DNA from: Calditrichota bacterium
GTDB taxonomy: Bacteria; Zhuqueibacterota; Zhuqueibacteria; Residuimicrobiales; Krinioviventaceae
NCBI GenBank assembly: GCA_013152225.1
Contig: JAADGR010000329.1
Span: 1 to 49,282, forward strand
Length of the DNA: 49,282 nucleotides
Reading direction: 5' to 3'
The stretch's first letter is position 1; each line of letters starts with the position of its first letter. Both the position numbers and the translations under genes were made by a program. A model generated the notes under the pieces. That model did not search any database, was not told the DNA's origin, and saw nothing but the letters and a program-made list of their open reading frames with translations. Below are positions 9,298 to 31,247 of this stretch, in pieces.

Positions 9298-9303
9298 TTT
9301 TAT

Positions 9304-11346: not shown

Positions 11347-11360
11347 GGAGTGCATTTGAT

Positions 11361-14621: not shown

Positions 14622-14623
14622 AT

Positions 14624-15817: not shown

Positions 15818-15864
15818 GTTGATATTTTTAAAAAGTCCGAGAGCAAAACAAACAGGCATCAAAA

Positions 15865-17472
15865 ATGAAAACTGATAAATGGCAACAAATAGCCGAGTCA
15901 CCGGAAGCAGCAGCTTTATTAAAACTTGCATTACACATCAACGATATCTGCGATCATGAGGGCGATATTACCGATTTTCTTCCCACCCTTTTGCATCAAC
16001 TGGCTCAATTGCTGGACGTTCAATCAGCCGCCATTACCGTCATCGATTCTGAGAACAAGCAAAAAGTATTAAGCCGTTATGATCGTGGGGAAACTGAAAT
16101 CAGCAACGGAAGCCTTGTCGAGTTAGCAAATGTTGTGGTCGATTCGAGAGAGCTTTTCACTGAAGCGGATTCCCGACCCGGCTTTGACAATGTCCTTGCC
16201 GCGCCGATCATCAGAACAGACCGGGTTCTCGGCTCATTCATTCTCGCGAATAAATCCAACGGCAATTTTGGTGATTACGACCGCATCGTTGTAACGCTTG
16301 TAGAAGCACAAATGGATTATGTCATCGACGACTGGCTCAAGCGCCAAAAACAATTGATGATCGAAACTGAAAACCGGGTTCTGAAAGAACTGGACAAAAT
16401 TCGTGATGAATCGCAGGATCAGGGAGAGGCGCTGGATGAAATGATTTCTACGATCCTGAATTCCGTGGACGCACAGATCGGCTTTATCACACTTTATGAT
16501 TCTGATGGAGATCGGCACTTGCCCGGCGGCAAAGTCATTCGCGGCAATCGGCCCATGAGCCAATCGGACTATAAGCAGGTCGGAGAATTCATACGCGCCG
16601 CGAAGAAGAATCATGAAACCATTCGAATTGAAACGATTCCGAATAGCGAAATCGATTCCATTCTGGTTGTTCCGATGTTCATCTCGGAAATGTTTCTCGG
16701 ATCGGTTGTTTTGATAAACAAAGAACATGCAAATCACTTTACGCCGCAGGATCAAACGCTTGTTGAATCCGTTACCGGAATTATTGATACATTCATTTTC
16801 CAGGAAGAAAAATTTAAACGCCTGATGAAGCTTGTTGGCCGCGAAGCAACGCGCGATGTGGAAGAAGCACTCATGGGACACCGCCCTGACACGGGGCATG
16901 GTCAGAGAATGGAAATTACCATGTTCTTCGCCGACATTCGAAATTACAGCGAAAAAACGCGCGACATGGATCCGACCACAACCGTGAGAATGCTCAACGA
17001 TTTTTTCAACGCCGTAACGCCGATCATTACCGCCCACAACGGTATTGTTGATAAATATGTCGGTGATGAAATTGTGGCGCTCTTTACAAGGTCTACGGCG
17101 AAAGGAAGTCACCAGGCGCTGGCTGTCGAAGCTGCGCTATGCATACAAACGGAATTGGACAGAATGAATCGGGAGTGGGAATTAACCGGCCGGCAGACAA
17201 TTCAAGTTGGTGTGGGCATTCATACGGGCGAAGTTATTCTCGGTCAAATTGGAAGTTACGACCGCAAAGACTATACAGCGATAGGCTCCAATATGAATTT
17301 TGCCGCCCGGCTGCAATCAATTGCCGGCCCCGGCGAAATCATCATCAGTGAAAGTACTTACATTGGCTTGACAGGGAAAATTATGGCGAGGCACGTCGGC
17401 CCGTTTGAAATTAAAGGTTTTGGTGAATCACTGGCCTATCTCGTTGAAGGAAGGTCACCGGATCAGTTTTAA
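15865..17472 (+). CDS. GAF-domain class III adenylate cyclase
   Basis: 535 aa. The N-terminal ~330 aa is GAF-like. The C-terminal cyclase homology domain has MFFADIRNYS, VDKYVGDEIVALF, GIHTGEVILGQIGS and DYTAIGSNMNFAARL. The Lys (DKYVGD) and Asp (DYT) pair points to ATP specificity. Confidence 0.85.
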   Translation: MKTDKWQQIAESPEAAALLKLALHINDICDHEGDITDFLPTLLHQLAQLLDVQSAAITVIDSENKQKVLSRYDRGETEISNGSLVELANVVVDSRELFTEADSRPGFDNVLAAPIIRTDRVLGSFILANKSNGNFGDYDRIVVTLVEAQMDYVIDDWLKRQKQLMIETENRVLKELDKIRDESQDQGEALDEMISTILNSVDAQIGFITLYDSDGDRHLPGGKVIRGNRPMSQSDYKQVGEFIRAAKKNHETIRIETIPNSEIDSILVVPMFISEMFLGSVVLINKEHANHFTPQDQTLVESVTGIIDTFIFQEEKFKRLMKLVGREATRDVEEALMGHRPDTGHGQRMEITMFFADIRNYSEKTRDMDPTTTVRMLNDFFNAVTPIITAHNGIVDKYVGDEIVALFTRSTAKGSHQALAVEAALCIQTELDRMNREWELTGRQTIQVGVGIHTGEVILGQIGSYDRKDYTAIGSNMNFAARLQSIAGPGEIIISESTYIGLTGKIMARHVGPFEIKGFGESLAYLVEGRSPDQF

Positions 17473-17480
17473 GCAAAAGA

Positions 17481-18038
17481 ATGGAGATTACAATGATAAC
17501 AGATCAGGAAATCGAAAAGGCAAAAAATCGGGCAAAATCTTTTTACGACCGCGCTGGAATTGTTATCACCGAGGAAGAATTTCAATCGCTGGAAATCACA
17601 GATCTTGGTTTAAGCCGGTTTGAGGAAATCGGTCTGACTTTGCTCGTTTATGTAAATTCAGCCCGCGTCTGTGCAAAAGAGATGGTTCTTTTTCCGCATC
17701 AAATTTGTCCGGAGCACAAACACCCACCGGTGATGGCCGAGCCGGGCAAGGAAGAAACTTTTCGTTGCCGCTGGGGTGAGGTCTTATTATATGTGCCGGG
17801 CGAACCCGCTTTGCATCCCCGGGGTCACGTACCTGCTGATAAGAAAGACACTTTTACCGTCTGGCATGAAATCGTTCTGCTGCCCGGCGAACAATACACA
17901 ATCAAACCGAACACCTGGCACTGGTTTCAGGCCGGCGCCAAAGGAGCAGTCATTTCAGAATTTTCAACCACAAGCCGGGATGAGAGTGACATTTTCACAG
18001 ATTCAGAGATTAAGCGCGTTGAAGAAAAAGTGTTTTAA
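17481..18038 (+). CDS. D-lyxose/D-mannose ketol-isomerase-like cupin
   Basis: 185 aa with ICPEHKHPP...GKEETFRCRWGEVLLYV...TWHWFQAG, a cupin metal-site pattern resembling the YdaE-type D-lyxose isomerases. It starts 8 nt after the cyclase gene. Confidence 0.65.
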   Translation: MEITMITDQEIEKAKNRAKSFYDRAGIVITEEEFQSLEITDLGLSRFEEIGLTLLVYVNSARVCAKEMVLFPHQICPEHKHPPVMAEPGKEETFRCRWGEVLLYVPGEPALHPRGHVPADKKDTFTVWHEIVLLPGEQYTIKPNTWHWFQAGAKGAVISEFSTTSRDESDIFTDSEIKRVEEKVF

Positions 18039-18257
18039 AAAGGACGCCTGTTATGCCATAATACATAATCTTCACTTTATCATTTTATTCTTTCAGACTA
18101 AATTTACACCAAATCTTGATTTTTCGGACACTTGACAAGGATTCTCAACCTGAAATCGACAAAATCATTAAACAGCACAAAAATATTTTATTTGACGCAA
18201 ATCTCCCCGTTTTGTTGGCATAAGCTTTGCTAAAAGGAAGGAAAGAATAAAAAGGAA

Positions 18258-18527
18258 ATGAACAGAAGGAACATCATGAACTTTAGCATAAAAACAATTC
18301 TTCTAATTGTCCTCGGCTTTGCAATCGTTGCTTTGGCAGATGAGAAAAAAAATGAACCAAAAGAAATCACTCTCCCCAAAATAATAATTCCGGCGCCGAA
18401 AAAAGAAACCGAAAGGAAAAAGGTCAAAGCCATAAAACAGAACAACTCGCCTTTGATCCAGAAACAACAAAAACAAACCGAATTTACAGATGATTTGCGC
18501 ACGATAAAGCAAATAGATTTCACCTGA
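18258..18527 (+). CDS. small secreted Lys-rich hypothetical protein
   Basis: 89 aa. A purine-rich SD (AAAAGGAAATG) precedes it, the signal peptide is ILLIVLGFAIVALA, and a hairpin terminator follows. Confidence 0.4.
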   Translation: MNRRNIMNFSIKTILLIVLGFAIVALADEKKNEPKEITLPKIIIPAPKKETERKKVKAIKQNNSPLIQKQQKQTEFTDDLRTIKQIDFT

Positions 18528-18585
18528 TCTTTAATAAGACATTCACCACCCGTTAATCGATATTCTCCTTTCCACCATCAGAAAA

Positions 18586-18614
18586 GGGGCAGTCTCACCA
18601 ACTGTCCCTTTTTT
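18586..18614. terminator. bidirectional rho-independent terminator between the small ORF (+) and the acyl-CoA ligase (-)
   Basis: ggggcagt-ctcacca-actgtccc forms an 8-bp stem with one G-U pair. It is flanked by aaaa upstream and tttttt downstream. Confidence 0.55.
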
Positions 18615-18652
18615 AATAATCATTGTGAAAAATGAACCAAGCTATCGAATGA

Positions 18653-20593
18653 TTATTCTTCAAGCCTCGAAATAATGGTCAGGTTTTGGTGATTGTAAAT
18701 ATCTTTGCCTTCCGGAGTCAAGAGGTAATCCATACGGCTTTTATAAAAGTCCGCAATGCGACTGCGAACCATTTTTAACGTGCTATTCAAAAAGCGGTTC
18801 TGCTCGGTAAATCCTTCACCCAGCACAGCAATGGCACTCGGTAGCCACTTGGTGGGAAATTGTCCTGCATATTGGCCGCCTTCTTTGAATTGGTCGATTT
18901 GTTCCTGCAATAATTTCATAGCTGCCTTTTGTCCTTCTTCCGAGTGACAGGCAAGCTTGTTTTCATCAAGCCACCTCACCAAAGCTTCGCGATTGGGAAC
19001 AATTAATGCAATCGTGTACGGCGATTGATTGTTGTAGAGCATCACTTGATTAATGTAATTTGAATGAGATACAATTGCTTCCTCAATTCCTTCCGGGCTG
19101 TATTTTTCACCATCACTGCTGATGAGCAAGCTCTTTTCCCGGCCAAGCACATACAGAAACCGGTCTTTATCCAGGTAACCAATGTCTCCGGTGTAAAGCC
19201 AACCATCCCGGATCGTCTCACGGGTAGCCTTGTCATTTTTCCAATATCCGGCCATCACATTCTCGCCTTGAACTACAATTTCACCCTTTTCACCAACAGG
19301 AACTTCGTTGCCGTTCTCATCACAAATTTTTAATTCCAGATTTTCTACCAAAGTACCGGAAGACCCTAATTTATGTCTTTTGGGTACATTAGCCGAAATA
19401 ATCGGAGATGCTTCAGTTAACCCATATCCCTGGAACATTGGAATTCCGATAGCATAAAAAAACCGCTGCAATTCAATATCAAGCAGCGCACCGCCGCCGA
19501 TAAAAAATTCCAGTCGGCCGCCAAAGCCCTCGCGGATTTTGCTGAAAAGAATTTTATCAAAAAGCAATAAAAGCGGTTTTCTTAAAAATCGTAATCCTTT
19601 CCCCCTGCTCCAGCCATCGGCGTTATAGGCATACGCGTTTTTAAGAGCGCGTTGAAAGAGCTTTTCAACCTTGGGGCCTTTTTGCCGAATACCCTTTTCG
19701 ATATTTTTACGAAAATTCTGCGCCAGAGCCGGTACACTCAAAAGAAATGTCGGCTTTGTCTCTTTAATGTTGATGGGAATATTTTTCAAGGTTTCCATGG
19801 GAGTTTTCCCAACCTTCACCGAGGCCATGCTCGCACCATTCATCAAAAGCGTATAGATTCCGGCAGTATGAGCAAACGAGTGATCCCAGGGCAGGATCAA
19901 GAGTGACGAGTACCATTCGGGAATGGGAAGGACAGACGAGGCTTGTTCAACATTAGCCGTATAGTTTCTGTGAGTGAGAATAATCCCTTTGGGATCAGCC
20001 GTCGTACCCGAAGTATAGCAAATATTTGCGGCATCATTTTCTTTTACTGATTTGTAAATTTCTTCAAACTTTTCTTTGTTTGATTCTAAAAATTGATTAC
20101 CTTTTTTGTAGAGTTCATCCACTGTGATGACATCCTCATCCAGACCATCCTGAGGATCGAGGAGAATAATTTTTTCCAGATCAGGTAAATCTCTTTTAAT
20201 CTCTGAAACTTTGTGGAACTGTGTCCCCGAAACAATAACCATTTTGCAGCCGGAATGGGAAAGTCTGAATTTCAGTTCGGATAATTCCTCCAGCTTCACC
20301 GACAGCGGGACATTGATTGCGCCGGTGTAAAGAATTCCAAGTTCTGAAATGAGCCAGGCATTTCTACCTTCAGAAATAAGCGCAATACGATCTCCTTTCT
20401 GAATGCCCATGCTCATCAGCCCGGCGGCGAATCGATGAACATAATTTCGTATTTCTTTATATGTTGTACCCTCGAATTTCTCATTCTGTTTTTCGTACAT
20501 GAGGACATTGTCAGCATATTTTACTGCACTTGTTTCGAGCATCTGGATCATGGTTCTTTCTGCCACAGTTTTCTCCTTGCATTTTACGAACAA
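18653..20593 (-). CDS. fadD: long-chain fatty-acid--CoA ligase (AMP-forming)
   Basis: 646 aa with the AMP-binding motifs ICYTSGTTADPKGIILTHRN, GYGLTE and YTGDIGYLD. Confidence 0.85.
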   Translation of the reverse strand: MFVKCKEKTVAERTMIQMLETSAVKYADNVLMYEKQNEKFEGTTYKEIRNYVHRFAAGLMSMGIQKGDRIALISEGRNAWLISELGILYTGAINVPLSVKLEELSELKFRLSHSGCKMVIVSGTQFHKVSEIKRDLPDLEKIILLDPQDGLDEDVITVDELYKKGNQFLESNKEKFEEIYKSVKENDAANICYTSGTTADPKGIILTHRNYTANVEQASSVLPIPEWYSSLLILPWDHSFAHTAGIYTLLMNGASMASVKVGKTPMETLKNIPINIKETKPTFLLSVPALAQNFRKNIEKGIRQKGPKVEKLFQRALKNAYAYNADGWSRGKGLRFLRKPLLLLFDKILFSKIREGFGGRLEFFIGGGALLDIELQRFFYAIGIPMFQGYGLTEASPIISANVPKRHKLGSSGTLVENLELKICDENGNEVPVGEKGEIVVQGENVMAGYWKNDKATRETIRDGWLYTGDIGYLDKDRFLYVLGREKSLLISSDGEKYSPEGIEEAIVSHSNYINQVMLYNNQSPYTIALIVPNREALVRWLDENKLACHSEEGQKAAMKLLQEQIDQFKEGGQYAGQFPTKWLPSAIAVLGEGFTEQNRFLNSTLKMVRSRIADFYKSRMDYLLTPEGKDIYNHQNLTIISRLEE

Positions 20594-20725: not shown

Positions 20726-22537
20726 TTGACCAGAAATATTCCGGCTGAAAGCATAGAACAAGTCCGACTTGCAAGCGATATCGTTGACGTTGTATCCGGT
20801 TATTTAACCTTGCAGAAAAGAGGGCGTAATTACTTCGGCCTGTGCCCGTTTCACCAGGAAAAGACGCCATCCTTTAGTGTAAATCCTGAGATGCAGATTT
20901 TTCATTGTTTTGGCTGTGGCGCCGGCGGCAATGTATTCACATTTATTATGAAAATGGAAGGCGTTACATTTCCCGAAGCCGTAAAACTTTTGGCCCAAGC
21001 AGCCGGCATAGTTTTACCGGAAGATAGTGAGGATATCGATCAGTATCGGGAAAAGGAAGCGCTTTTTTATGTCAACAAGCTTGCAAATGAATTCTTTCTG
21101 CATAACTTACAAAAAGCAAAAGAGGCTCAGGAAGCCCGCGATTATTTGCAGAACAGAGGGATTCTTTCCCAAATGTATGCACAATTTGATCTGGGCTACG
21201 CCTTGAACAGATGGGATGGGCTGCTTAATCACGCCAAAACAAAATCCATCAAACCGGAGATATTGTTAAAAGCCGGACTTGTCATTCAAAAAGAGGCAAG
21301 TCGATATTATGATCGTTTCCGCGGCAGAATTACTTTTTCAATTCGCAATTTAAGCAACCAAATTATTGGTTTTGGCGCGCGGAGACTCGCTGATGATGAT
21401 TCACCGAAATACATCAATACGCCGGAAACGGAAATTTACCAAAAAAGATTTATTTTATATGGTTTGCATACAGCGCGTGAATCCATCCGCCGGGAAAATA
21501 AAATCATCATTGTCGAAGGTTACACAGACTTTATTAGTCTGAATAATGCAGGAATTAAAAATGTCATCGCCACATCAGGCACTGCCCTGACGGAAGAGCA
21601 TGCGCGACTCATGCGTAGATATACTTCAAACGCTATTGTAATGTATGACAGCGATTCTGCCGGCGCTGCGGCTGCGATGCGTGGAGCGGATATCCTTTTG
21701 GAAAATGGATTCGAAATTAAAATATGCACTTTACCAAATGGACAGGACCCGGATGAATTTGTTCGTACCCATAGCGAGGTGCAAGTGAAGGAAATCCTTG
21801 AGGCGGCAGCACCTCTCATCGATCACAAACTTCAAGTTTTGCAAAAAGATGATTTGTTGCAAACAGTTAATCAACGTACTTCCGCAACACGGGAATTGCT
21901 CGCTTCCATCGCAAAGATCGGTGATCAAATCCAGCGTGCTTATCTGGTTCGGGACCTGGCAAAAAAATTGCATATCGAAGAATCGGCTCTTTGGAATGAG
22001 CTTGAAAAACAAAGCAAGAAAACACGGTTTACGCCAAAAACAGACGCAGCACCTCGGGACAGCACAATTTCAGCAAACAAGTTTTTCCAATCCAAAAAGG
22101 GTGCCGCTGAATTGGCACTTTTGGAAATGGCCGTACTCGATCCCGATTTGATTCCCCGGATTTTGCAAAACGTTCATCACGATGATTTTTCACATCCGGA
22201 AATTCGCAGGTTTTTCCAACTTGTCGATTCTTCCGAATTTGATCCGCTCTCCTTCTCACCGGAAAATTATATTGCCACGATTCAGGACGCCTCCATCGCC
22301 TCTCATCTTTCCGACTCGTTCTCGGAAAAATCTTTTGCCTCATTTTCATGGAAATATGCTTCCGATTGCATTATATCCTTGCAACTCGTCCAAATTGATG
22401 AAGAAATTGAACGGATACGCGAAGAAATTCGACAACAAAATAAACAATCAAAAAACACTTCATCACTCGTTCATCAATTTCAGCAACTGCTCGAACAAAA
22501 AAAGTTAGTTTCCAAAGGTGAGTTTATTATATCATAA
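20726..22537 (+). CDS. dnaG: DNA primase
   Basis: 603 aa with a TTG start. It has the zinc ribbon CPFHQEKTPSFSV...FHCFGCGAGG, a TOPRIM region IIVEGYTDFISL...MYDSDSAG, and a C-terminal helical domain. Confidence 0.9.
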   Translation: MTRNIPAESIEQVRLASDIVDVVSGYLTLQKRGRNYFGLCPFHQEKTPSFSVNPEMQIFHCFGCGAGGNVFTFIMKMEGVTFPEAVKLLAQAAGIVLPEDSEDIDQYREKEALFYVNKLANEFFLHNLQKAKEAQEARDYLQNRGILSQMYAQFDLGYALNRWDGLLNHAKTKSIKPEILLKAGLVIQKEASRYYDRFRGRITFSIRNLSNQIIGFGARRLADDDSPKYINTPETEIYQKRFILYGLHTARESIRRENKIIIVEGYTDFISLNNAGIKNVIATSGTALTEEHARLMRRYTSNAIVMYDSDSAGAAAAMRGADILLENGFEIKICTLPNGQDPDEFVRTHSEVQVKEILEAAAPLIDHKLQVLQKDDLLQTVNQRTSATRELLASIAKIGDQIQRAYLVRDLAKKLHIEESALWNELEKQSKKTRFTPKTDAAPRDSTISANKFFQSKKGAAELALLEMAVLDPDLIPRILQNVHHDDFSHPEIRRFFQLVDSSEFDPLSFSPENYIATIQDASIASHLSDSFSEKSFASFSWKYASDCIISLQLVQIDEEIERIREEIRQQNKQSKNTSSLVHQFQQLLEQKKLVSKGEFIIS

Positions 22538-22583
22538 AGTACTTTTTAAAACGCACTTTTTTACGATTAAAAGGTCATAATTG

Positions 22584-22612
22584 TTGACATTTCAAAATTA
22601 ATTCAATATATT
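22584..22612 (+). promoter_or_regulatory. sigma70-type promoter candidate for the repeat-protein gene
   Basis: TTGACA (22584-22589), a 17-nt spacer, then TATATT (22607-22612). This predicts a leader of roughly 205 nt. Confidence 0.45.
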
Positions 22613-22826
22613 AAGAAAATAATTCACAGCAACTACAACAAGAACAGGATTCAGCACCCAAAAACTAGCACAGGGAGGTTGAAGGGAAAGCTCACAACAC
22701 ACAATTTCAGGCATCAAGATGTATCTGCTAATGTGCTAATAAATTATTTTCTAATTTAAAAGCACGTAAATACCCTACGTCGAACAAAGATCATGTCAGT
22801 TCATATTCTATGAAAGGAGAATTGAC

Positions 22827-23498
22827 ATGAAGAAAGCATTTTCATTTATCGCAGTAGGGATTACTTACATTTGTATCGCATTTGGTTTTTCGTGGGCTGA
22901 TAATGCTGGTTTGTTAGATTCTGCACTTGGTTTTATTGGATTAACCAACAATAACAATGCAGCAAAGTTCTTTGAAAGTAATAATGAAGGGTGGTCGGCA
23001 AGCGGCGTGGCGCTGAGGGCTGAATCAGTTTTTCCATATCAAAAAGTAATTTCTTCCTCTGAAATTATAACTCCAACAACTGTTTTAAATACGGAAAAGG
23101 GTGAGGATCAGTTACTTTGTAACATTCCGGTTCCACCGCCACCGTATCCGGAACCTGACGCTCAACCGGATGTCAGAAATAGCTTGGCCAATATTCCGGT
23201 ACCACCTCCGCCGTACCCGGAACCTGACGCTCAACCGAATGTCAGAAACAGCTTGGCTAATATTCCGGTACCACCTCCGCCGTACCCGGAACCTGGAGCA
23301 CCACCGGATGTCAGAAACAGCTTGGCCAATATTCCGGTACCACCTCCGCCGTACCCGGAACCTGGAGCACCACCGGATGTCAGAAACAGCCTGACCAATA
23401 TTCCGGTACCGCCTCCACCGTACCCGGAACCAGGAGCACCACCGGATGTCAGAAATAGCTTGGCCAATATTCCGGTACCATTGCCTTCATTATCGTAA
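22827..23498 (+). CDS. secreted proline-rich tandem-repeat protein
   Basis: 223 aa. AAAGGAG lies 7 nt before the ATG, and the signal peptide is FIAVGITYICIAFGFSWA. The C-terminal half is 5.3 copies of NIPVPPPPYPEP[DG]A[QP]P[DN]VRNSL[AT]. Confidence 0.7.
   Translation: MKKAFSFIAVGITYICIAFGFSWADNAGLLDSALGFIGLTNNNNAAKFFESNNEGWSASGVALRAESVFPYQKVISSSEIITPTTVLNTEKGEDQLLCNIPVPPPPYPEPDAQPDVRNSLANIPVPPPPYPEPDAQPNVRNSLANIPVPPPPYPEPGAPPDVRNSLANIPVPPPPYPEPGAPPDVRNSLTNIPVPPPPYPEPGAPPDVRNSLANIPVPLPSLS
23121..23489 (+). repeat. 69-nt (23-codon) tandem repeat, 5 full copies plus a partial sixth
   Basis: Copies start at 23121, 23190, 23259, 23328, 23397 and 23466 (partial). Copies 2-5 differ by only a few substitutions. 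Confidence 0.95.
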
Positions 23499-23616
23499 TG
23501 CAGTTTTGCGCTAATATTTGCGTAAAAGATAAAATAATAGTAGCTTTTTTACTTATTTTTCACTATATTTAGTCAAATAGAAATAATTGTTGACGTGATC
23601 TTTGGTTCGAACTGGT

Positions 23617-24465
23617 ATGACAAAAAGCAGATACGAAAAGGCACATTGGGGTACAATATTGAATGCGTGGTTTGCATTTAATGTGTTGATGGTATTTTTG
23701 TCTCGATTTCCCCATATTCCGATGCCCCTGATGAGTTGGATTAATCTATCTCTTTATTTTCTCGCATTTTTGATTACTTTCTTTTTAGTTAAAGAAGATC
23801 AGTTTAATCGGGATATTTATTTGCCTTTTTGTATTCTATTCCTAATTAACAGTTCTATCTTACTTTACATATTTATCGGTGATAATTATCTTATTGGTAA
23901 TAACGAGATTGGATGGTCTATTTATAAACATACTAAGTTAATTTTGGCTTTCTTCTTTGTTTATAGTATCGTTTATTATTCAGCTAAGCATTCTCTTCGT
24001 CCCCAAAATCCATTTCTTCTAATTACGGCAACTATTGCGCTGGTTACTGCAATTTTTATTTTTCACTTTAAAGATTTCCTTTTTGACCCATCATCTTTCT
24101 ATGACAAAAGCTTAGATCGTAAGCTGTTTTTATTTCACTTGTTTCCACCTGTTGCAATCGTTCTCTACGGTTTATTATCTCCACTCTTCAAGCCAAAATA
24201 CGGCATATACTATCATTCTATCATGGTCGTCCTGTTATTCCTCAGTGCACGACAGATATTCATAGATTTGGTAAAATTAAAAAATATTTCCATTTTCGGA
24301 ATTGACCAAATATTTTTGACCATTGCTCTGTTATTTTTGCTCTATTTTTTAGCTCAAAAGCTTAATTTTATTTCTACTCTTACCGGACAAATTTCAAATT
24401 TATTCTCAAATTATGTACGATTCATTGCATATTCCAAATTTAAAATTAGAAACCAGAGATCATAA
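23617..24465 (+). CDS. polytopic (about 8 TM) membrane protein, hypothetical, very AT-rich
   Basis: Hydrophobic segments continue throughout and no recognisable soluble domain is present. The ORF opens at TTG 23602 and the first ATG is at 23617, so the start is uncertain. Confidence 0.6.
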   Translation: MTKSRYEKAHWGTILNAWFAFNVLMVFLSRFPHIPMPLMSWINLSLYFLAFLITFFLVKEDQFNRDIYLPFCILFLINSSILLYIFIGDNYLIGNNEIGWSIYKHTKLILAFFFVYSIVYYSAKHSLRPQNPFLLITATIALVTAIFIFHFKDFLFDPSSFYDKSLDRKLFLFHLFPPVAIVLYGLLSPLFKPKYGIYYHSIMVVLLFLSARQIFIDLVKLKNISIFGIDQIFLTIALLFLLYFLAQKLNFISTLTGQISNLFSNYVRFIAYSKFKIRNQRS

Positions 24466-24712
24466 GGAGTTTGAACATATTGCCACATTGATAAACTACT
24501 TTTATATTAAGAAATTAATGATCATTCCGTTTTTTATTGCCATTGTTTATTTGATAATTTATCTAAGGCCTCCAGCTATTGTGAGTTTGAACTTAATCTC
24601 ATTAGCTGCGGTTATCTTTCTGGTATTGATTTTCTTCACGACAACATATAATCGCAAATTAAGGAGCGGCGGATTTTATATTTCGCCAAAAACCAAACAT
24701 AACAAAACTTAG
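24413..24712 (+). CDS. small membrane protein (2 TM), hypothetical; start uncertain
   Basis: TM helices are MIIPFFIAIVYLIIYL and LISLAAVIFLVLIFF. TAAGGAG at 24463-24469 overlaps the stop of the upstream gene, but the only in-frame starts after it are ATT 24479 and ATG 24518. A frame break from the upstream gene cannot be excluded. Confidence 0.4.
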   Translation: MYDSLHIPNLKLETRDHKEFEHIATLINYFYIKKLMIIPFFIAIVYLIIYLRPPAIVSLNLISLAAVIFLVLIFFTTTYNRKLRSGGFYISPKTKHNKT

Positions 24713-24722
24713 AGAGAGTTAA

Positions 24723-25649
24723 ATGAAACAATCTCAGAGACGTGGACTCGTTTTGGCAGGGAAAAGTCCAGAGATTACACGCGTTCGGAAAGCCGTCAAA
24801 GTGTTCTCGAAGGAACAGGGAAATATTCTTATTTTGGGAGAGATTGGTACAGGACGCAGGTCTCTGGCAGAGAAGTTACATGCCTCAGGCAAATCCAAGG
24901 ACAAGCCTTTTAGTGTGATCGAATGCGGTGCTATCGGAGATACTCTCGATGTTGATTCCGTATTCCCAAACCCAAACAACGGACATGATTCAAAGGAGGT
25001 AATGCTCTTTTCTGCCGGCAAAGGCACTATCTTTTTGAACGGTGTCGACAGATTAAATCCTGACTTGCAAGACAGATTGTACAATTTTCTTGCTACAATT
25101 CCCAAAGACAGTACATTTAATTCCAGAATTGTTGCAGTTGCAGAGCCTTCTCTCGAAAAGAAAGTTCGCGACCACAAATTCCGAGTCGACCTTTTCCATA
25201 AACTGGATGAGTTCCGTATCAATCTTCCGGCAATACGCGAACGCAAGCAGGATATTCCTTTCATTTTTACCTACTTTTTGGAAACATTCTGCGAAGAATT
25301 CGGAAAGCCGATTCCCACGGTTCCTTTTGATGTTTTTGAAGCCATATTAGAGTATGATTGGCCCGGAAACATTGGCGAGCTGCGCAATTGCGTGCGCAAT
25401 CTGGTCATCATGTCCCCGGATGGAGAACTGGTGCCGGACTATCTTCCGTTCAGAGTGCAGCCGAATCCTTTGGAGGCACTGGCCTCTCGCGATCTTCCAT
25501 CAGCCGTTTCGGAAGTCGAACGATTTCTCATTCGTAAAGCTCTGGCCCGATTTGAAGGAAATCAATCCAAAGCCGCGCGTCTTTTACGGGTATCAGAAGC
25601 CGCATTGCGATACAAAATGAAGAAATACGGTCTCCCTTCTTTTAAGTAA
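24723..25649 (+). CDS. receiver-less sigma54-activator-like (bEBP/PspF-type) AAA+ plus Fis-HTH regulator with degenerate ATPase motifs and no GAFTGA-like loop
   Basis: The fold landmarks are conserved: ILILGEIGTGRRSLAEKLH, GTIFLNGVDRL...LQDRLYNFL, FRVDLFHKL, LPAIRERKQDIPF, YDWPGNIGELRN, and the C-terminal HTH SKAARLLRVSEAALRYKMKKYGL. However, the Walker A Lys is Arg (codon 24855-24857), Walker B DE is NG (25038-25043), and no GAFTGA-like sequence is present. Confidence 0.8.
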   Translation: MKQSQRRGLVLAGKSPEITRVRKAVKVFSKEQGNILILGEIGTGRRSLAEKLHASGKSKDKPFSVIECGAIGDTLDVDSVFPNPNNGHDSKEVMLFSAGKGTIFLNGVDRLNPDLQDRLYNFLATIPKDSTFNSRIVAVAEPSLEKKVRDHKFRVDLFHKLDEFRINLPAIRERKQDIPFIFTYFLETFCEEFGKPIPTVPFDVFEAILEYDWPGNIGELRNCVRNLVIMSPDGELVPDYLPFRVQPNPLEALASRDLPSAVSEVERFLIRKALARFEGNQSKAARLLRVSEAALRYKMKKYGLPSFK

Positions 25650-25664
25650 ATCTTCCTCCCTATA

Positions 25665-25697
25665 CATAAAATCCCCGAAATGGGGATTTTATGTTTT
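25665..25697 (+). terminator. strong rho-independent terminator after the regulator gene
   Basis: A perfect 12-bp stem, cataaaatcccc (25665-25676) with ggggattttatg (25682-25693), a gaaat loop, then tttt. Confidence 0.75.
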
Positions 25698-25797
25698 CGG
25701 GAAAAACATCTCATTGTTCCAATTGTGAGCATGAGTTACTTTGTATTTATCCTTCGTGCCTTTCTACCCTACTTTATAATCAATGAATTAAAATTAC

Positions 25798-25831
25798 TTG
25801 ACATTGTGTCATCATATAAATATTATATGAT
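25798..25831 (+). promoter_or_regulatory. sigma70-type promoter candidate with an overlapping 9-3-9 palindrome (operator-like)
   Basis: TTGACA (25798-25803), a 17-nt spacer, then TATTAT (25821-25826). ATCATATAA-ata-TTATATGAT (25811-25831) is a perfect inverted repeat spanning the -10 box. Confidence 0.45.
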
Positions 25832-25912
25832 ATATTTCTGTCTTTTCAAAACCAACTCATTTGATTGGTTGAAATAAATCCATCTATATCTCAATTATTT
25901 TCCGGAGTTGAA

Positions 25913-28345
25913 ATGACTAAATTTAAAAAAGTCCCGGCGGACAAAACAAGATGGCATTGCGATCTTACACAGTTCACATTTAAAACAACTGATGAATTAA
26001 AAAGATTTTCAACTATCCTTGGCCAGGATCGTGCAGTGCGCTCAATCAATGCCGGACTGGATATGAATTATGCGGGATACAATATCTTTGTATCCGGGGC
26101 GTCCGGTACGGGACGAGCGACAACAGTAAAATTGCTTCTTCAACAGCGCAAAAAAGAAAAGGAAACTCCAAAAGATATTTGCTATGTCAACAATTTTAAG
26201 AATCCGGATTTGCCGGTCGTTCTAACTTTTGCTTCGGGACAGGGATGTCAGTTTAAAAACGATATGGAAGCTCTGGTTGATCAGTTACAAAATGTCTTGC
26301 CACAAATCTTTGAAAGCGACAGATACCGTCAAAAACGCGACTCGATAGAAAATAAATTTAATGAGCAGCAAAAGAAAAAGCTGGAAGAATTTGAAAAAAA
26401 AACCGCAAGTAAGCATTTTACTTTGGTACAAATCCAGGTCGGCCCATATACCAAGCCGGATATTTTTCCCGTTATTAAAGATCAACCTATTCCTCTTGAA
26501 CAGTTATCACAACAAGTGCAAGAGGGAACAATCAGCGAAAAAGAAATGGAAAATCTCCTGAAAACCCACGAAGAATTTACGAAAGAGCTGGGCCGAATTT
26601 TCAAAGAAAATCAAAAGATTCAACGCGAAAAAATACAAAAGATCAACAGACTTGATTATGATATGGCAAAACCCGTGATTTCCGATGCGATCAATGAGCT
26701 CAGGGAGAAATATTTGGACGACAAAGTCCATGACTATCTGGATAGTATTGAAGAAAATGTGCTTTTGAACCTCAAATTGTTCCGGGGAACTGTCGATTCA
26801 GGAAAAAGAAAAGACCGAGAGTCCAAGAAATCTTTTTTACCTGATCAGTTTCTGGAATACAGGGTTAATGTCATTGTAGACAACAGGGATGCAAAAGGAG
26901 CGCCGATCATTTTCGAAAACGGGCCGTCTTTTGCGAAACTATTCGGGACAATCGAAAAAGTGGTCGATGCAAAAGGTCAGTGGCGAACGGATTTCACAAA
27001 AATTCGTGCCGGGTCTCTTCTTATGGCGAACGGCGGATTTCTTGTTCTTTACGCCAGGGACGTCCTTGTTGAACAGGGTGTCTGGAACAATTTAAAACGA
27101 AACCTGAAATCCCGTAAAACCGAAATTCAAGGGTACGATCCATTTTTTATGATCTCTGCAACGGCGATAAAACCAGAGCCGATTGATATCGACCTCCAAG
27201 TAATACTCATTGGCGAGCCGGACGTGTATCACTTGCTTTACGAGGCTGACCCGGATTTTAATAAAATCTTTAAAGTGAAAGCCGATTTTGATTATGTAAT
27301 GAAAAATGAAAAGGACAACCTTTTAAAGTATGCCGAGTTCATAAAAAAGATTTGTGATGATGAAAATCTTTTGCCTTTCGACAGGGCCGCTGTCGGAGCT
27401 GTTGCAGAATATGGCGTGCGCCTGGCCGGACGCCAAAACAAAATATCGACTCGATTCAATTATATTGCCGATCTCGTTCGGGAAGCGAGCTATTACGCGC
27501 AAAAAAGCGTGACAAAAATTGTTTTAACCAAACATGTGGATGAGGCGATTTCCGAAAAGATTTTGCGGGTCAATCTTATCGAGGATAAAATCCAGGAAAT
27601 GATAAAAGAAGGAACGATCATGATTGATACCAGGGGAAAGGTGATCGGCCAGGTCAATGGACTGTCCGTGCTGAGTTTGGGGGATTATTCATTCGGAAGG
27701 CCTTCACGGATCACTGCCCAGGTTTCTATCGGGCGAGCAGGAATTATAAACATCGAACGCGAAGTTGCACTCAGCGGGCCCACGCATGATAAAGGCGTTC
27801 TCATCATTGCCGGTTATTTGCGCGGCAAATTTGCTCACGACAAACCTTTGGCAATGAGCGCAAGCATCTGTTTTGAGCAATCATATTCAGGTGTTGACGG
27901 AGACAGCGCTTCTTCCACCGAAGTGTATGCTTTACTGTCCGGCATTGCAGAAATCCCGCTGCGCCAGGACATCGCCGTTACGGGTTCCGTAAATCAAAAG
28001 GGAGAAATCCAGCCTATCGGCGGTGTGAATGAAAAAATTGAAGGCTTTTTCAAAGTTTGTAAAGCTGCCGGTCTAACCGGCTCGCAGGGCGTCATGATCC
28101 CGCGCCAGAATGTAGATGATCTGATGCTCTCAAAAGAGGTTGCTGAATATATAAAAAAGGAAAAGTTTGCAATTTATCCGATCGACACGATTGATCAGGG
28201 AATTGAGTTATTAAGCGGACAGCCTGCCGGAGAGCGTGATGCACAAGGCAAATTTCCACCGGACAGCATTAACGGCAAAGTTGACACAAAACTGGCTGAA
28301 TTTGCCAACAGTTTGAAAAACTTTTCTTCACATGAGATATTTTAA
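25913..28345 (+). CDS. Lon-like protease (LonB/COG1067 lineage, LonC-like): degenerate AAA-like module with a large insertion plus an S16 protease domain
   Basis: GGAG lies 5 nt before ATG 25913 (the ORF opens at 25865). GYNIFVSGASGTGRATT has Arg in place of the Walker A Lys (26114-26116). The Walker B equivalent GGFLVLYARD has Y-A in place of D-E (27050-27055) and lies about 310 aa later, after a charged helical insert. The protease domain has GVDGDSAS (Ser codon 27905-27907) and GGVNEKIEG (Lys codon 28034-28036). Confidence 0.85.
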   Translation: MTKFKKVPADKTRWHCDLTQFTFKTTDELKRFSTILGQDRAVRSINAGLDMNYAGYNIFVSGASGTGRATTVKLLLQQRKKEKETPKDICYVNNFKNPDLPVVLTFASGQGCQFKNDMEALVDQLQNVLPQIFESDRYRQKRDSIENKFNEQQKKKLEEFEKKTASKHFTLVQIQVGPYTKPDIFPVIKDQPIPLEQLSQQVQEGTISEKEMENLLKTHEEFTKELGRIFKENQKIQREKIQKINRLDYDMAKPVISDAINELREKYLDDKVHDYLDSIEENVLLNLKLFRGTVDSGKRKDRESKKSFLPDQFLEYRVNVIVDNRDAKGAPIIFENGPSFAKLFGTIEKVVDAKGQWRTDFTKIRAGSLLMANGGFLVLYARDVLVEQGVWNNLKRNLKSRKTEIQGYDPFFMISATAIKPEPIDIDLQVILIGEPDVYHLLYEADPDFNKIFKVKADFDYVMKNEKDNLLKYAEFIKKICDDENLLPFDRAAVGAVAEYGVRLAGRQNKISTRFNYIADLVREASYYAQKSVTKIVLTKHVDEAISEKILRVNLIEDKIQEMIKEGTIMIDTRGKVIGQVNGLSVLSLGDYSFGRPSRITAQVSIGRAGIINIEREVALSGPTHDKGVLIIAGYLRGKFAHDKPLAMSASICFEQSYSGVDGDSASSTEVYALLSGIAEIPLRQDIAVTGSVNQKGEIQPIGGVNEKIEGFFKVCKAAGLTGSQGVMIPRQNVDDLMLSKEVAEYIKKEKFAIYPIDTIDQGIELLSGQPAGERDAQGKFPPDSINGKVDTKLAEFANSLKNFSSHEIF

Positions 28346-30257
28346 AAAAAGTATTTTTATCGTCGCTGTTTCCATCATCCTCCAATGCGCCGGCTCCAAT
28401 CGCTGGGGCAAAGTGATCGAATGGAAAGACGTCAGTCTTGAAAATCTTCCTTCTGAATCTGATTATCCCGACCAGGGTGCAGTCATTCTTCTTGATGAAG
28501 GAAATCTTGAAATTTTCAAAAGCAGCGGCTTTGCATATTCTTTATTGGAAAGACATCGCATTGTTAAAATATTCAATTCCCGGGGAGTTCACTTTGCAAA
28601 TGTGACGATTCCCTATTCAAGTTCAACAACGGTCTCGAACATCAAAGCAAGAACGATAACCGGCGATGGCCGCATCATTCCTCTGCCGGCAGACCAAATC
28701 TTTGACGTCACACTCTATCCCGGTTTTATTTTTTACAGCGACATAAGGGCGAAACGATTTACCCTGCCCGGTGTTGAAGACGGATGTGTCGTTGAATACG
28801 AGTGGCAAAAGATCGTGAAAAATTTTACCTATTGGGACCAATGGACTTTTCAAAATGAAGCGCCCACCCTCATTTCCCGTTATCATGTTAAAGCCCCCTC
28901 TGAATGGGAAATAAAATGGAAAACAAGGGGTATCGACCTCGAACCCAAAACGGAAAATCTCCCGGATGGCTTTAAACAAGATTATGTTTGGGAGGCAAAA
29001 GATTTGCCGGCGATGAAGCGCGAAGTGGCTATGCCTCCTCCCTCACGCTTGTCTACCGCCATCTTATTTTCCCCGGTTGGAATGACCACCTGGAGCGATG
29101 TTGCAACGTGGTATCATGAACTTTCGGCAGATCGAATAAAGCCGAATGAACAGATAAAAACAGAAGCGGAAAATCTCACCCGGAACTGCCGGACACAGCG
29201 TGAAAAGCTGGAAAAAATTTACCAATTTGTCCGCGACAAAATCCGTTATGTCGCCATTTCAATCGGCATAGGCGGTTATCAGCCTCACTTTGCTACGGAT
29301 GTTCTTCACAACCGCTATGGCGATTGCAAAGACAAGGCAGCTCTCATCGCTGCCATGGCAAAAACACTGGGAATCGACGTTGACCTCGTTCTCATTTCAA
29401 CCTGGCAAAACGGAGAGGTCGACACGACGATCACATCGCACACGCAGTTTAATCATGTCATAGCTTGCGCGCATTTAAATGGCCGCAATGTCTGGATGGA
29501 TGCCACCGAGACGTTTTGCCCCTTCGGCCATCTTCCCTGGTACGATCAGGGAAGGCTGACATTTGTCATTGATCATTCCGGTCAGGGAGAATGGGAAATG
29601 ACGGCAAAAGAAAATACTCCAGCAAATGTCGTCGAAAGGAATTGGAAATTGGAAATTGATTCCACCGGCAGAATTTTGGGCGAATTGAAGACAACAGCCG
29701 GAGGAGCTTACGCGATGCAGTATCGCGAAGAAATTGAAACCATCCCAGAGGAACAAATTGATTCATGGATATTCGCGCCCGTTTTACAAAGATTTCCGAA
29801 ATCCAAATCCCTAAAAGTTTCGCTTCTGAACAGAAAGACGCTGCTAAAACCTTTGACATTCAATGTTGATTTCCGCACTGCACCGGATTCTGAGCAAGTC
29901 TCCTGTTTATTTACAATGGACACTTTTTGCCAATTCGATTGGTACAAAATCTTCGTTTCACCCAGACGAAATTATCCCGTTGCTTTCAAATTTCCCTCAG
30001 CATTTATCGACAGGATTCACATTCATTTTCCCGATTCCTGGAAAATCGAAACAAATATCATCAACGATTCAACATCAAATTCTTTCGGGCATGAAATCAA
30101 TAAAATATCAATAACAGATAATCACGAGATAAACATTTACCGGGAATTTTATCTAAAAAAAACATTCATCGAGCCTTCCGAGTATCAAACTTTTAAAACT
30201 TTTTTAAATGATGTTGCTTTGGCGGACAGGCAATTCCTTCTCTTTAAAAAGTTTTAA
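28332..30257 (+). CDS. exported DUF3857 / transglutaminase-like cysteine protease fold / DUF3858-type protein
   Basis: 641 aa with the signal sequence IFIVAVSIILQCAG. The transglutaminase-core triad context is YGDCKDKAALIAAMAKTLGI (Cys codon 29325-29327), FNHVIA and VWMDATE. The start overlaps the Lon-like gene by 14 nt. Confidence 0.8.
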   Translation: MRYFKKSIFIVAVSIILQCAGSNRWGKVIEWKDVSLENLPSESDYPDQGAVILLDEGNLEIFKSSGFAYSLLERHRIVKIFNSRGVHFANVTIPYSSSTTVSNIKARTITGDGRIIPLPADQIFDVTLYPGFIFYSDIRAKRFTLPGVEDGCVVEYEWQKIVKNFTYWDQWTFQNEAPTLISRYHVKAPSEWEIKWKTRGIDLEPKTENLPDGFKQDYVWEAKDLPAMKREVAMPPPSRLSTAILFSPVGMTTWSDVATWYHELSADRIKPNEQIKTEAENLTRNCRTQREKLEKIYQFVRDKIRYVAISIGIGGYQPHFATDVLHNRYGDCKDKAALIAAMAKTLGIDVDLVLISTWQNGEVDTTITSHTQFNHVIACAHLNGRNVWMDATETFCPFGHLPWYDQGRLTFVIDHSGQGEWEMTAKENTPANVVERNWKLEIDSTGRILGELKTTAGGAYAMQYREEIETIPEEQIDSWIFAPVLQRFPKSKSLKVSLLNRKTLLKPLTFNVDFRTAPDSEQVSCLFTMDTFCQFDWYKIFVSPRRNYPVAFKFPSAFIDRIHIHFPDSWKIETNIINDSTSNSFGHEINKISITDNHEINIYREFYLKKTFIEPSEYQTFKTFLNDVALADRQFLLFKKF

Positions 30258-30302: not shown

Positions 30303-31247
30303 ATGGAGCAAAGAGCAATGTATGGAATTTCAACGTGCTGGAGGTCAACACAAATTACCGATGGAAATCGCTTACTCGATGCGATGCTGGAATCGGGTTT
30401 ATCAACGCTGGAACTCGATTATCGGATTCACGAGACGGAATTTAATAAAATAGCGAAAAGACTGAAAACTGACGAATTTACAATTCTTACAGCACATAAC
30501 ATTTTCCCAATCCCCGACAATGCTTTATCCAAAAATAACAGTTTTGTGCAACCTTCACTTTCCTCGCTTGATATCGATGAGCGGAAACTGGCTGTGAAAT
30601 ATGGAATCAAGACTATTCACCTCGCATCAGACTTGGGGGCGAAATTAGTCATTTTCCATCTCGGAAAAGTTGAAATGAACGGAGAGCGAACAAAATTATT
30701 TTCTTTTTACGAAAACAATAAAATTGACTCCAAAGAATATCGCGAATTTATAGAAGGAAAACTCGATGAAAGGATGGCAAAAGCTCCCCCCTATTTTGAC
30801 GCACTCCTGAAAAGCCTGGATCAATTGAACGAGGAAGCTTTTCATCTTGGCATTTTAATCGGAGCTGAAAATCGTTATTCCTACGAGCAAATCCCGTTCG
30901 CAAATGAATTTGAACACATTTTCCAAGAATTCGCCGGCGGGAATGTTCGCTACTGGCATGATGTGGGACACGCGGAGATTTCTCACAGATTAAAAATTCT
31001 GAATCACGAAAACGATTATTTGAAAAAATACAAAAAGTATCTCGCCGGCATGCATATTCACGATATCAAAGGTCTGCAAGACCACCTTGCACCCGGTTTG
31101 GGGGATTTTCAATTTGAAATTCTAAAACCGTATCTCGATAAGGATTCCATTCGAATTTTGGAAATACATGATCAGGCATCTGCACAAAATATCCAGACCG
31201 CGGTTAAATCGCTAATAAAAATGGAATTATTTAAAGCGGAAAAATAA
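30303..31247 (+). CDS. sugar phosphate isomerase/epimerase (xylose isomerase-like TIM barrel)
   Basis: 314 aa with FHLG, GAENR, YWHDVGHAE and GMHIHD, the metal-ligand pattern typical of the AP-endonuclease-2/xylose-isomerase-like TIM barrel family. Confidence 0.7.
   Translation: MEQRAMYGISTCWRSTQITDGNRLLDAMLESGLSTLELDYRIHETEFNKIAKRLKTDEFTILTAHNIFPIPDNALSKNNSFVQPSLSSLDIDERKLAVKYGIKTIHLASDLGAKLVIFHLGKVEMNGERTKLFSFYENNKIDSKEYREFIEGKLDERMAKAPPYFDALLKSLDQLNEEAFHLGILIGAENRYSYEQIPFANEFEHIFQEFAGGNVRYWHDVGHAEISHRLKILNHENDYLKKYKKYLAGMHIHDIKGLQDHLAPGLGDFQFEILKPYLDKDSIRILEIHDQASAQNIQTAVKSLIKMELFKAEK

Follow-up and report, generated by a model that had tools for sequence, protein, structure and literature searches.

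A predicted ATPase-dead regulator, its putative membrane partner and a long-range mRNA helix beside a LonC protease operon in Calditrichota

Gene content of the locus downstream of dnaG

We studied a gene cluster in a 49,282-nucleotide (nt) stretch of Calditrichota bacterium DNA (GenBank assembly GCA_013152225.1, contig JAADGR010000329.1, positions 1 to 49,282), which is referred to below as the window. The cluster lies between dnaG (20726-22537) and a gene for a xylose-isomerase-like TIM barrel of the AP_endonuc_2 family (30303-31247). It encodes a small exported protein (P1), a polytopic membrane protein (Mem), a putative DNA-binding protein related to bacterial enhancer-binding proteins (REG), a protease of the LonC family and a probable lipoprotein with a transglutaminase-like domain (P6). 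An earlier note on this DNA, which covered positions 22538-30257 and ended just before the TIM-barrel gene, had described six same-strand open reading frames (ORFs) downstream of dnaG. This description was borne out by our ORF and Pfam calls, which place six + strand ORFs in the interval between dnaG and the TIM-barrel gene, itself on the + strand.

No Pfam domain was found in P1 (22827-23498; 223 amino acids (aa)) or in the two ORFs that follow it, which had been described as encoding proteins with eight (23602-24465; 287 aa) and two (24413-24712; 99 aa) transmembrane (TM) helices. REG (24723-25649; 308 aa) contains Sigma54_activat, AAA_lid_14 and HTH_8 domains. The protease gene (25913-28345) encodes 810 aa, or 826 aa if translation starts at an alternative TTG at 25865, and matches LonC_helical, AAA_32, LonB_AAA-LID and Lon_C. 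The last ORF is P6 (28332-30257; 641 aa). Homologous loci, designated by L numbers, were found via REG, which is the only gene that is constant across the approximately 21 lineages. These lineages comprise a close clade of 12, in which REG is at least 49% identical, and a distant clade, in which it is 37-46% identical.

The two membrane ORFs are parts of one gene

In relatives, the two membrane ORFs correspond to one protein of approximately 357-392 aa, of which the first approximately 275 residues align with the eight-helix ORF and the remainder with the two-helix ORF. L091, whose DNA is 90% identical to that of the window, has an intact Mem ORF of 368 codons. The sole indel between the two sequences is a tandem duplication of CAAATTT at 24388-24394, which causes a +1 frameshift in the window. 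The separate eight-helix and two-helix proteins of the earlier note are thus the N- and C-terminal parts of a single gene of approximately 360-365 aa, Mem (23617-24712, + strand), which this 7-bp duplication splits into ORFs 23602/23617-24465 and 24413-24712. Among contigs, the duplication site is covered by the window and L091 alone, and the duplication may be either a real mutation or an assembly error. Mem starts at ATG 23617 rather than at TTG 23602, and the deposited annotation contains its 282-aa N-terminal part alone.

Mem belongs to an unnamed family that is rare in public data. A word-indexed search returned three proteins, and an exhaustive profile search was needed to recover 147 representatives among 1.84 billion cluster representatives, all of them stand-alone proteins of approximately 350-400 aa. 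In an AlphaFold model based on 41 sequences (pLDDT 88.6), eight TM helices are followed by a short linking helix and then by a further TM pair, which makes Mem a 10-TM protein. A Foldseek search of this model against the PDB gave nothing significant, the top matches being bundles of the G-protein-coupled receptor type (E >= 0.026, TM-score 0.35-0.40). Pfam searches of the 41 members likewise found nothing consistent: TgpA_N matched two of them at E ~0.09, which is too weak for use, and 7TMR-DISM_7TM gave a single weak match to one member (E = 3e-4).

REG has lost the catalytic residues of enhancer-binding proteins

The domain homology of REG is that of bacterial enhancer-binding proteins (bEBPs), with matches to PF00158 (E = 6e-22), AAA_lid_14 (E = 2e-19) and HTH_8 (E = 1e-13), and Pfam detects no receiver or sensor domain in it. 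The REG orthologues form a group of proteins of approximately 300-312 aa (E < 1e-57) whose sources are named 'candidate division KSB1', after which the scores fall sharply to those of canonical response-regulator bEBPs. A contig scan with the full REG alignment, in which one search pattern was generic, gave mostly canonical bEBPs, and L009 and L010 were the only orthologues among the matches listed. A metagenome scan with the C-terminal part of REG gave at least 11 orthologues among the 80 loci listed.

None of 33 aligned REG orthologues has the GAFTGA motif, which is replaced by a variable, shorter segment, and none has the Walker B Glu. One orthologue retains the Arg finger and two retain the sensor II Arg; at the Walker A position, 20 have Arg and 13 have Lys. 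GAFTGA and the Walker, Arg finger and sensor II residues are all present in the canonical bEBPs that were included in the alignment. In the window, the corresponding motifs of REG read GTGRR (Walker A), FLNGVD (Walker B), FHKLD (Arg finger) and GNIGEL (sensor II), and HTH_8 is intact. The nearest solved structure is ZraR (1ojl; E = 2e-36), and the sigma-54-independent VpsR (7v2b) matches with E = 1.6e-28. Judged by these motifs, REG is a bEBP-derived DNA-binding protein that is unable to act as a sigma-54 activator, and it almost certainly does not hydrolyse ATP. A search for the sigma-54 motif TGGCAC-N5-TTGC with at most two mismatches gave 45 matches against 50.8 expected, none of them in the intergenic regions of the cluster.

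P1 is enclosed by a long-range mRNA helix

P1 is a small exported protein with a signal peptide, a conserved SWAN motif and a Pro-rich C-terminal unit. The earlier note had recognised it as a repeat protein, in agreement with the tandem repeat that we found at 23124-23480, where a 69-nt (23-aa) unit is present in 5.2 copies. Homologues with a single unit (77-115 aa) occupy the same position in L004, L171, L173, L174, L175 and L176, and analogous small Pro-rich ORFs lie 5' of Mem in five loci of the distant clade (L090b, L093, L094, L097 and L098). In total, a P1-like ORF precedes Mem-REG in at least 12 loci. The Pro-rich unit has expanded independently in two distant lineages, namely in the window and in L097, where the 17-aa unit WDPCPNPPPPPPLPVTN is present three times (261-545); elsewhere it is single.

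P1 is preceded by a 5' leader of about 215 nt (22613-22826, + strand), which ends in the near-invariant initiation region AAAGGAGAATTGACATG. Two boxes within the leader, GGGAGG (approximately 22674-22679) and ATCTGCT(G/A) (approximately 22723-22730), are kept in an alignment of six lineages. The Rfam 15 covariance models gave no match at E <= 1 in positions 22400-26000.

The leader also contains the 5' arm of a long-range pairing. This arm, GTCGAACAAAGATCATGTCA (22779-22798, + strand), lies approximately 30 nt 5' of the P1 start codon and upstream of the P1 ribosome-binding site, and it is the reverse complement of TGACGTGATCTTTGGTTCGAAC (23591-23612, + strand), which ends 4 nt before the Mem ATG. 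The resulting pairing of approximately 20 bp encloses the whole P1 ORF. Its 3' arm covers the Shine-Dalgarno position of Mem, which reads CGAGG in relatives, and its 5' arm contains CCTCG. The same complementarity is found in L171, L173, L004, L174, L175 and L176. The free energy of the window duplex is -37.8, compared with -18.3 +/- 3.5 for shuffled sequences. Across seven close-clade lineages the duplex ranges from -28 to -40 kcal/mol, compared with -15 to -22 when shuffled, and the observed values are reached by 0-4 of 300 shuffles. In an alignment of six close-clade sequences, 87% of the cells are paired, compared with at most 45% in slid registers, and three pairs are compensatory. The distant clade (L090b, L093, L094, L097 and L098) has an analogous helix that is formed by different arms, CCCGAACAGUUUU and AAAACUGUUCGGG, with 93% of the cells paired and six compensatory pairs; on four of five measures, none of 500 shuffles reaches the observed value. 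In both clades the 3' arm adjoins the Mem start codon.

Inverted repeats around a short segment resemble invertons, and the arms around P1 might instead function as DNA elements, either as inverted operators (e.g., for REG, a DNA-binding protein that is encoded in the same operon) or as recombination sites of an invertible segment. Such a role would fit a further copy of the TTGACATGA core, the third, which overlaps the P1 start. However, the differences between the arms are nearly all compatible with G.U pairing on the + strand (nine G.U against one A.C), and the + strand duplex is more stable than that of the - strand in five of six lineages. Both observations favour pairing in RNA over repeats in DNA. 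Moreover, the arm sequence is wholly different between the two clades, whereas the complementarity and the position at the Mem start are kept. The arms also have bulges, which recombination cores do not tolerate, and recombinase genes are absent from the cluster neighbourhoods that we read. We therefore consider a role as DNA elements very unlikely.

In the close clade, the 3' half of the 5' arm (22790-22798, UCAUGUCAA) can alternatively pair with 22821-22829 (UUGACAUGA) at the P1 start codon, forming a local hairpin that leaves the Shine-Dalgarno sequence in its loop. RNAalifold, applied to the whole P1 leader, found this local hairpin alone. As all of its pairs are invariant, the hairpin carries no covariation evidence. 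The local hairpin and the long-range helix could form a two-state switch.

The cluster probably consists of two operons

To form the long-range helix, P1 and Mem must lie on one transcript. The earlier note had proposed three transcription units, the first with P1 and the second with the membrane ORFs and REG. As a scan of the region found no terminator between P1 and Mem, and as the conserved RNA helix bridges them, these two units are most likely one. The cluster thus probably comprises a first operon at 22584-25697 (P1, Mem and REG) and a second at 25798-30257 (LonC and P6), which perhaps extends to 31247 and would then include the TIM-barrel gene.

Both operons begin with a sigma-70-type promoter on the + strand. 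That of the P1-Mem-REG operon, TTGACA-17-TATATT (22584-22612), matches 11 of 12 positions, and that of the LonC operon is TTGACA-17-TATTAT (25798-25826). These two TTGACA promoters, already pointed out in the earlier note, are the two top-scoring + strand matches in the region; promoter-like sites as a whole occur there at chance level (20 compared with 17.8 expected). A TTGACA-type promoter is found at the equivalent position 5' of P1 in L171, L173, L004, L174, L175 and L176. The LonC promoter block is kept in L091, L001 and L002, whereas the adjoining spacer diverges. The earlier note had also placed a palindrome over the -10 box of the LonC promoter; the palindromes over this promoter are not conserved strictly, and changes are found already in L091, a close relative.

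The P1-Mem-REG operon ends in a terminator-like hairpin (25665-25697, + strand). Direct reading of the sequence confirmed the perfect 12-bp stem that had been reported, CATAAAATCCCC/GGGGATTTTATG at 25665-25693, with a 5-nt loop and followed by TTTT; with so short a T-run, it had escaped the terminator scanner. The hairpin is identical in L091 and L001 and has a single loop change in L002. A hairpin with a T-run, which we read as a terminator, also lies 3' of REG in L171 and L176. In the second operon, the LonC and P6 genes overlap, as had been noted, by 14 nt, and across lineages the spacing of LonC and the transglutaminase-like gene ranges from overlapping to at most 39 nt. REG and LonC are separated by merely 20-30 nt in L009 and L172, which suggests that they are co-transcribed in these two lineages.

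The second operon encodes a LonC protease and a probable transglutaminase-like lipoprotein

The protease matches LonC of Meiothermus taiwanensis (MtaLonC; 4fw9/4fwd) with E = 5e-87. Its start codon is ATG 25913, which has GGAG upstream, and the alternative TTG at 25865 is less likely. The Ser-Lys dyad (GDSAS and NEKIEG) is kept in all six aligned LonC sequences, which come from five lineages. The insertion CX3GLX(G/E) in the alpha3-beta9 loop, by which LonC is defined (PMC3391209), reads CKAAGLTG in the window and has equivalents in the orthologues. The AAA-like module contains a long helical insertion and lacks the Walker B Glu, with GGFLVLYA aligning with GYLILDA of MtaLonC; a Walker B-like motif without Glu has been described for LonC (PMC3391209; PMC13069640). 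At the Walker A-like position MtaLonC has a Lys (GPPSLGKHE), whereas the five orthologues from the window, L005, L009, L171 and L172 have a conserved Arg (GTGR[ASTN]TT), which does not have the appearance of random loss. ATP-independent proteolysis without ATPase activity has been reported for MtaLonC and for Thermus TTC1975 (PMC3391209). By its sequence, the protease is an ordinary member of this described ATP-independent LonC family, and its dead Walker motifs are expected as a result of that membership.

P6 contains DUF3857 (E = 4e-29), Transglut_core (E = 5e-11) and DUF3858 (E = 8e-7) domains. Its match in the PDB is 3kd4, a 'putative protease' with the same three-domain architecture (E = 6e-7). 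The Cys-His-Asp triad of P6 (YGDCKDK, FNHV and WMD(A/P)T) is kept in four orthologues, whereas the catalytic Cys is absent from the part of 3kd4 that aligns with P6. As a conserved Cys follows the signal sequence, P6 is probably a lipoprotein. Its architecture is catalogued but uncharacterised.

The earlier note had described degenerate Walker A and B motifs together with intact output parts in the two AAA+-derived proteins. Both halves of this description hold: the Walker motifs read GTGRR and FLNGVD in REG and GTGRA and FLVLYA in LonC, and HTH_8 is intact, as are the Ser-Lys dyad of LonC and, in P6, the Cys-His-Asp triad. The note had also recognised no described system in this combination of genes. 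This stands for the P1-Mem-REG trio, which is undescribed, but not for the protease, which belongs to a known family. A genomic context of LonC with REG and a transglutaminase-like lipoprotein is not mentioned in PMC3391209, in which the words 'operon' and 'neighbor' are absent.

Conservation of the gene neighbourhood

Mem lies directly 5' of REG in approximately 16 of the approximately 21 lineages, with a gap of 3-35 nt or an overlap. In the close clade, this adjacency is found in the window, L091, L004, L171, L173, L174, L175 and L176. In the distant clade, Mem-REG pairs occur in different surroundings, in L007, L090 (two paralogous pairs), L093, L094, L095, L096, L097 and L098, and REG without Mem is found in three loci. 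The contexts of the pair vary: it follows dnaG, ThiF or PAP2, or lies beside a Bat operon. The paralogous pairs of L090 (309-2340 and 11116-12340) are 9 kb apart, and a Ser/Thr kinase-TPR protein and a C25 peptidase are encoded between them. Mem-REG is convergent to an aerotolerance-type Bat/MoxR-VWA-TPR operon in L007 (10924-20927), as identified by Pfam calls, and in L094 (10355-18893), as judged by the ORF layout only.

The full order P1-Mem-REG-LonC-transglutaminase-TIM barrel is found in the window, L171 and L176, the REGs of the latter two being 65-68% identical to that of the window, and partial sets are found in nine more lineages. The block follows dnaG in the window and in L091. In L171 it follows ThiF rather than dnaG and has an extra metallophosphatase gene before the TIM barrel, and in L176 the contig starts approximately 310 nt 5' of P1. 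Partial sets that include P1 and Mem are dnaG-P1-Mem-REG-transglutaminase in L173 (with a metallophosphatase gene after the transglutaminase-like gene; a TIM-barrel homologue was not found in this locus), dnaG-P1-Mem-REG in L004 and L175, and P1-Mem-REG-x-TIM barrel beside PAP2 in L174. The others are dnaG-REG-LonC-transglutaminase-TIM barrel in L172, dnaG-REG-LonC-TIM barrel in L009, dnaG-REG-LonC in L005 and L092, and dnaG-REG-TIM barrel in L089. The TIM-barrel gene, which in L089 directly follows REG, may belong to the same conserved block. Overall, LonC lies 3' of REG in 7 of 12 close-clade lineages. For the transglutaminase-like gene the count is 5 of 11, and for the TIM barrel it is 7 of 11. 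Wherever both are present, LonC is followed by the transglutaminase-like gene. REG is adjacent to dnaG in 9 of the 11 lineages with known context. The homologues do co-localise in other genomes, so the grouping made in the earlier note does not fall for want of co-localisation.

How closely the two operons belong together can be weighed with these neighbourhoods. The earlier note had suggested an envelope-directed module in which membrane proteins control a nucleotide-independent pseudo-ATPase. In its strongest form, all six ORFs would make up one obligate system, in which the membrane proteins act through the regulator on LonC and the transglutaminase-like enzyme, and these act on P1 or the wall. 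The complete set in identical order in the window, L171 and L176, its persistence outside the dnaG context in L171 and the tight packing of REG, LonC and the transglutaminase-like gene in L172 all agree with such a system. However, every component except REG is missing somewhere: L004, L174 and L175 lack both LonC and the transglutaminase-like gene, L173 lacks LonC, L005, L009, L089 and L172 lack P1 and Mem, and the distant clade has P1-Mem-REG alone. A single obligate system thus seems improbable. Control of a pseudo-ATPase by a membrane protein nevertheless agrees with how tightly and how deeply Mem and REG occur together, and with the loss of catalytic residues throughout the REG family; it is the inclusion of all six genes in one obligate system that does not.

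At the other extreme, the two operons may be functionally unrelated, with LonC, the lipoprotein and the TIM barrel being general proteostasis or envelope genes that adjoin REG through inherited order after dnaG. The adjacency of dnaG and REG (9 of 11) is indeed kept as often as that of REG and LonC (7 of 12), and the order of the housekeeping genes upstream is no less conserved. In the window, L171 and L176, moreover, the first operon is closed by a terminator and the second has a promoter of its own. The transglutaminase family has at least 725 homologues, and one of its members, P0304, lies on the 24-kb contig of the L093 pair, beyond 10 kb around REG. Against this, the gap of 20-30 nt between REG and LonC in L009 and L172 implies co-transcription, the order of LonC and the transglutaminase-like gene after REG is invariant when the genes are present, and the block has stayed together in L171 after relocation from dnaG. 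We regard unrelated operons as somewhat unlikely.

The interval had also been described as a non-housekeeping island, with a phage-related role equally open. The region is neither compositionally nor syntenically foreign. Its dip in G+C (0.31 at 23501-24500) is due to the membrane gene, and relatives show synteny at this locus, so that we rejected a compositional island. The upstream gene order TilS-Hpt-FtsH-TPR-FolP-CdaA-...-GAF cyclase-...-AMP ligase-DnaG is common to the window, L004, L089, L173 and L175. The region is conserved chromosomal backbone of a Calditrichota/KSB1-type group and not an acquired island. Lon-like proteases occur in the BREX defence system, and PADLOC models of the RtcR/PspF type match REG, as might be expected if the cluster were an anti-phage or mobile island. 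These models and a weak match of mad8 to LonC (E = 1e-4) were the only PADLOC matches in the cluster. They reflect generic AAA+/HTH similarity, and neither other defence components nor a multi-component system was found by PADLOC. The cluster also lacks mobility genes, its synteny is stable across the clade, and its protease is of the MtaLonC family. We thus rejected a defence island, and a role of this kind is highly improbable.

Further upstream, at 7358-20593 of the window, the genes are arranged as TilS-Hpt-FtsH-TPR-FolP-CdaA-(399-aa protein)-GAF adenylate/guanylate cyclase-...-AMP-dependent ligase, the last on the - strand, in an order kept in several relatives. A c-di-AMP synthase gene is here found near a GAF-cyclase gene.

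A candidate module for membrane-to-transcription signalling

Taken together, we favour two conserved chromosomal operons, of which P1-Mem-REG is a signalling-type module and the LonC operon is a frequent but dispensable neighbour and the likeliest target or partner of REG. We assign this reading a probability of roughly 50%. Mem would sit in the membrane as a sensor or an anchor and would control REG in trans, either by binding the degenerate AAA+ domain of REG or by releasing it, with P1 as a possible extracytoplasmic ligand or modulator of Mem. A cytoplasmic loop of Mem (NLKLE(T/S)RDxKEF) and a periplasmic one (PHWP...SW) are candidate sites for such contacts. At sigma-70-type promoters, REG would repress or activate transcription in the ordinary way, most likely on the second operon with LonC, the transglutaminase-like lipoprotein and possibly the TIM-barrel enzyme. 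The helix around P1 may hold the translation of Mem, and that of REG, whose start lies 10 nt after Mem, low or conditional relative to that of P1; alternatively, it may provide a double-stranded processing site. A more elaborate version, in which a 7TM-like receptor of ten helices senses P1 and holds or releases an ATPase-dead REG, the helix gates receptor synthesis and the LonC/transglutaminase operon is the output of a new signal-transduction module, is doubtful.

Several observations weigh against the two-operon reading that we favour. P1 and Mem are missing beside REG in five lineages (L005, L009, L089, L092 and L172), which means that REG does not depend on the presence of Mem. Of the 12 close lineages, 5 have no LonC, and the transglutaminase-like gene is missing from 6 of 11. 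As adjacency to dnaG is as frequent as adjacency to LonC, the conserved order may partly reflect phylogenetic inertia, and gene order by itself is no proof that the protease operon is under the control of REG. A shared palindromic operator, which was sought in 16 promoter regions, gave no signal above that of shuffled sequences, as would be expected if the two operons were unrelated. The Mem fold has no significant solved relative, and 'sensor' is thus a guess. Mem is frameshifted in the window contig, where the module may be inactive. Finally, the pair counts for the helix were made on structures derived from the same sequences, with 5-7 sequences per clade. On balance, we put a regulatory link between REG and the LonC operon at about even odds.

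The new elements at this locus are the Mem family, the association of P1, Mem and REG, the covarying long-range helix and the recurrent order of REG, LonC and the transglutaminase-like gene. The trio is a compact module, open to experimental testing, from phyla with hardly any cultured members. LonC, a protease whose role in the cell is not yet clear, gains a recurrent genomic partner in the transglutaminase-like lipoprotein and a candidate regulator in REG. Should the link to LonC fail, the trio and its RNA element would remain as a new form of membrane-to-transcription signalling.

Comparison with known systems

REG resembles a number of bEBP-like factors that act independently of sigma-54 (PMC6158489; 10.1101/2023.06.06.543975). 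Like VpsR of Vibrio cholerae, NtrC of Caulobacter and Rhodobacter, TyrR and HupR, it combines an AAA+ domain of the sigma-54-interaction type with a C-terminal Fis-type HTH. All of these proteins have lost or changed GAFTGA, and they are expected to act on promoters of the sigma-70 type. Unlike the VpsR-type regulators, REG has no receiver, ACT or PAS input domain, the Walker B Glu has disappeared across its family together with the Arg finger and the sensor II Arg, and its gene is accompanied by those for a polytopic membrane protein of its own and for a small exported protein. REG may thus represent an AAA+ enhancer-binding protein that was repurposed as a hydrolysis-independent transcription factor with its own membrane partner.

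A second likeness is to the phage-shock system. PspF, whose models match REG, is likewise a bEBP core without an N-terminal regulatory domain, and it is controlled in trans by the membrane-reporting partners PspA, PspB and PspC, which makes it an analogue of the way in which REG may work. However, PspF is an active ATPase that has GAFTGA and drives sigma-54 promoters, and the proposed partner of REG has 10 TM helices and belongs to an unnamed family. All neighbourhoods that we read were free of PspA/IM30 domains, and the module is in this respect not of the PspA type.

The helix, too, has counterparts. In the L20 pseudoknot of infC-rpmI-rplT and in the long-distance interaction of MS2, long-range mRNA pairing hides a downstream ribosome-binding site, and RNase III processing stems flank the 16S and 23S rRNAs. 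As in the P1-Mem helix, complementary segments that lie hundreds of nucleotides apart cover a Shine-Dalgarno sequence or bracket a unit. The P1-Mem helix, which has no Rfam match, differs from these systems in that it encloses a complete protein-coding ORF and masks the Shine-Dalgarno sequence of the next gene. This would be an unusual means of setting expression ratios, or a switch, within an operon.

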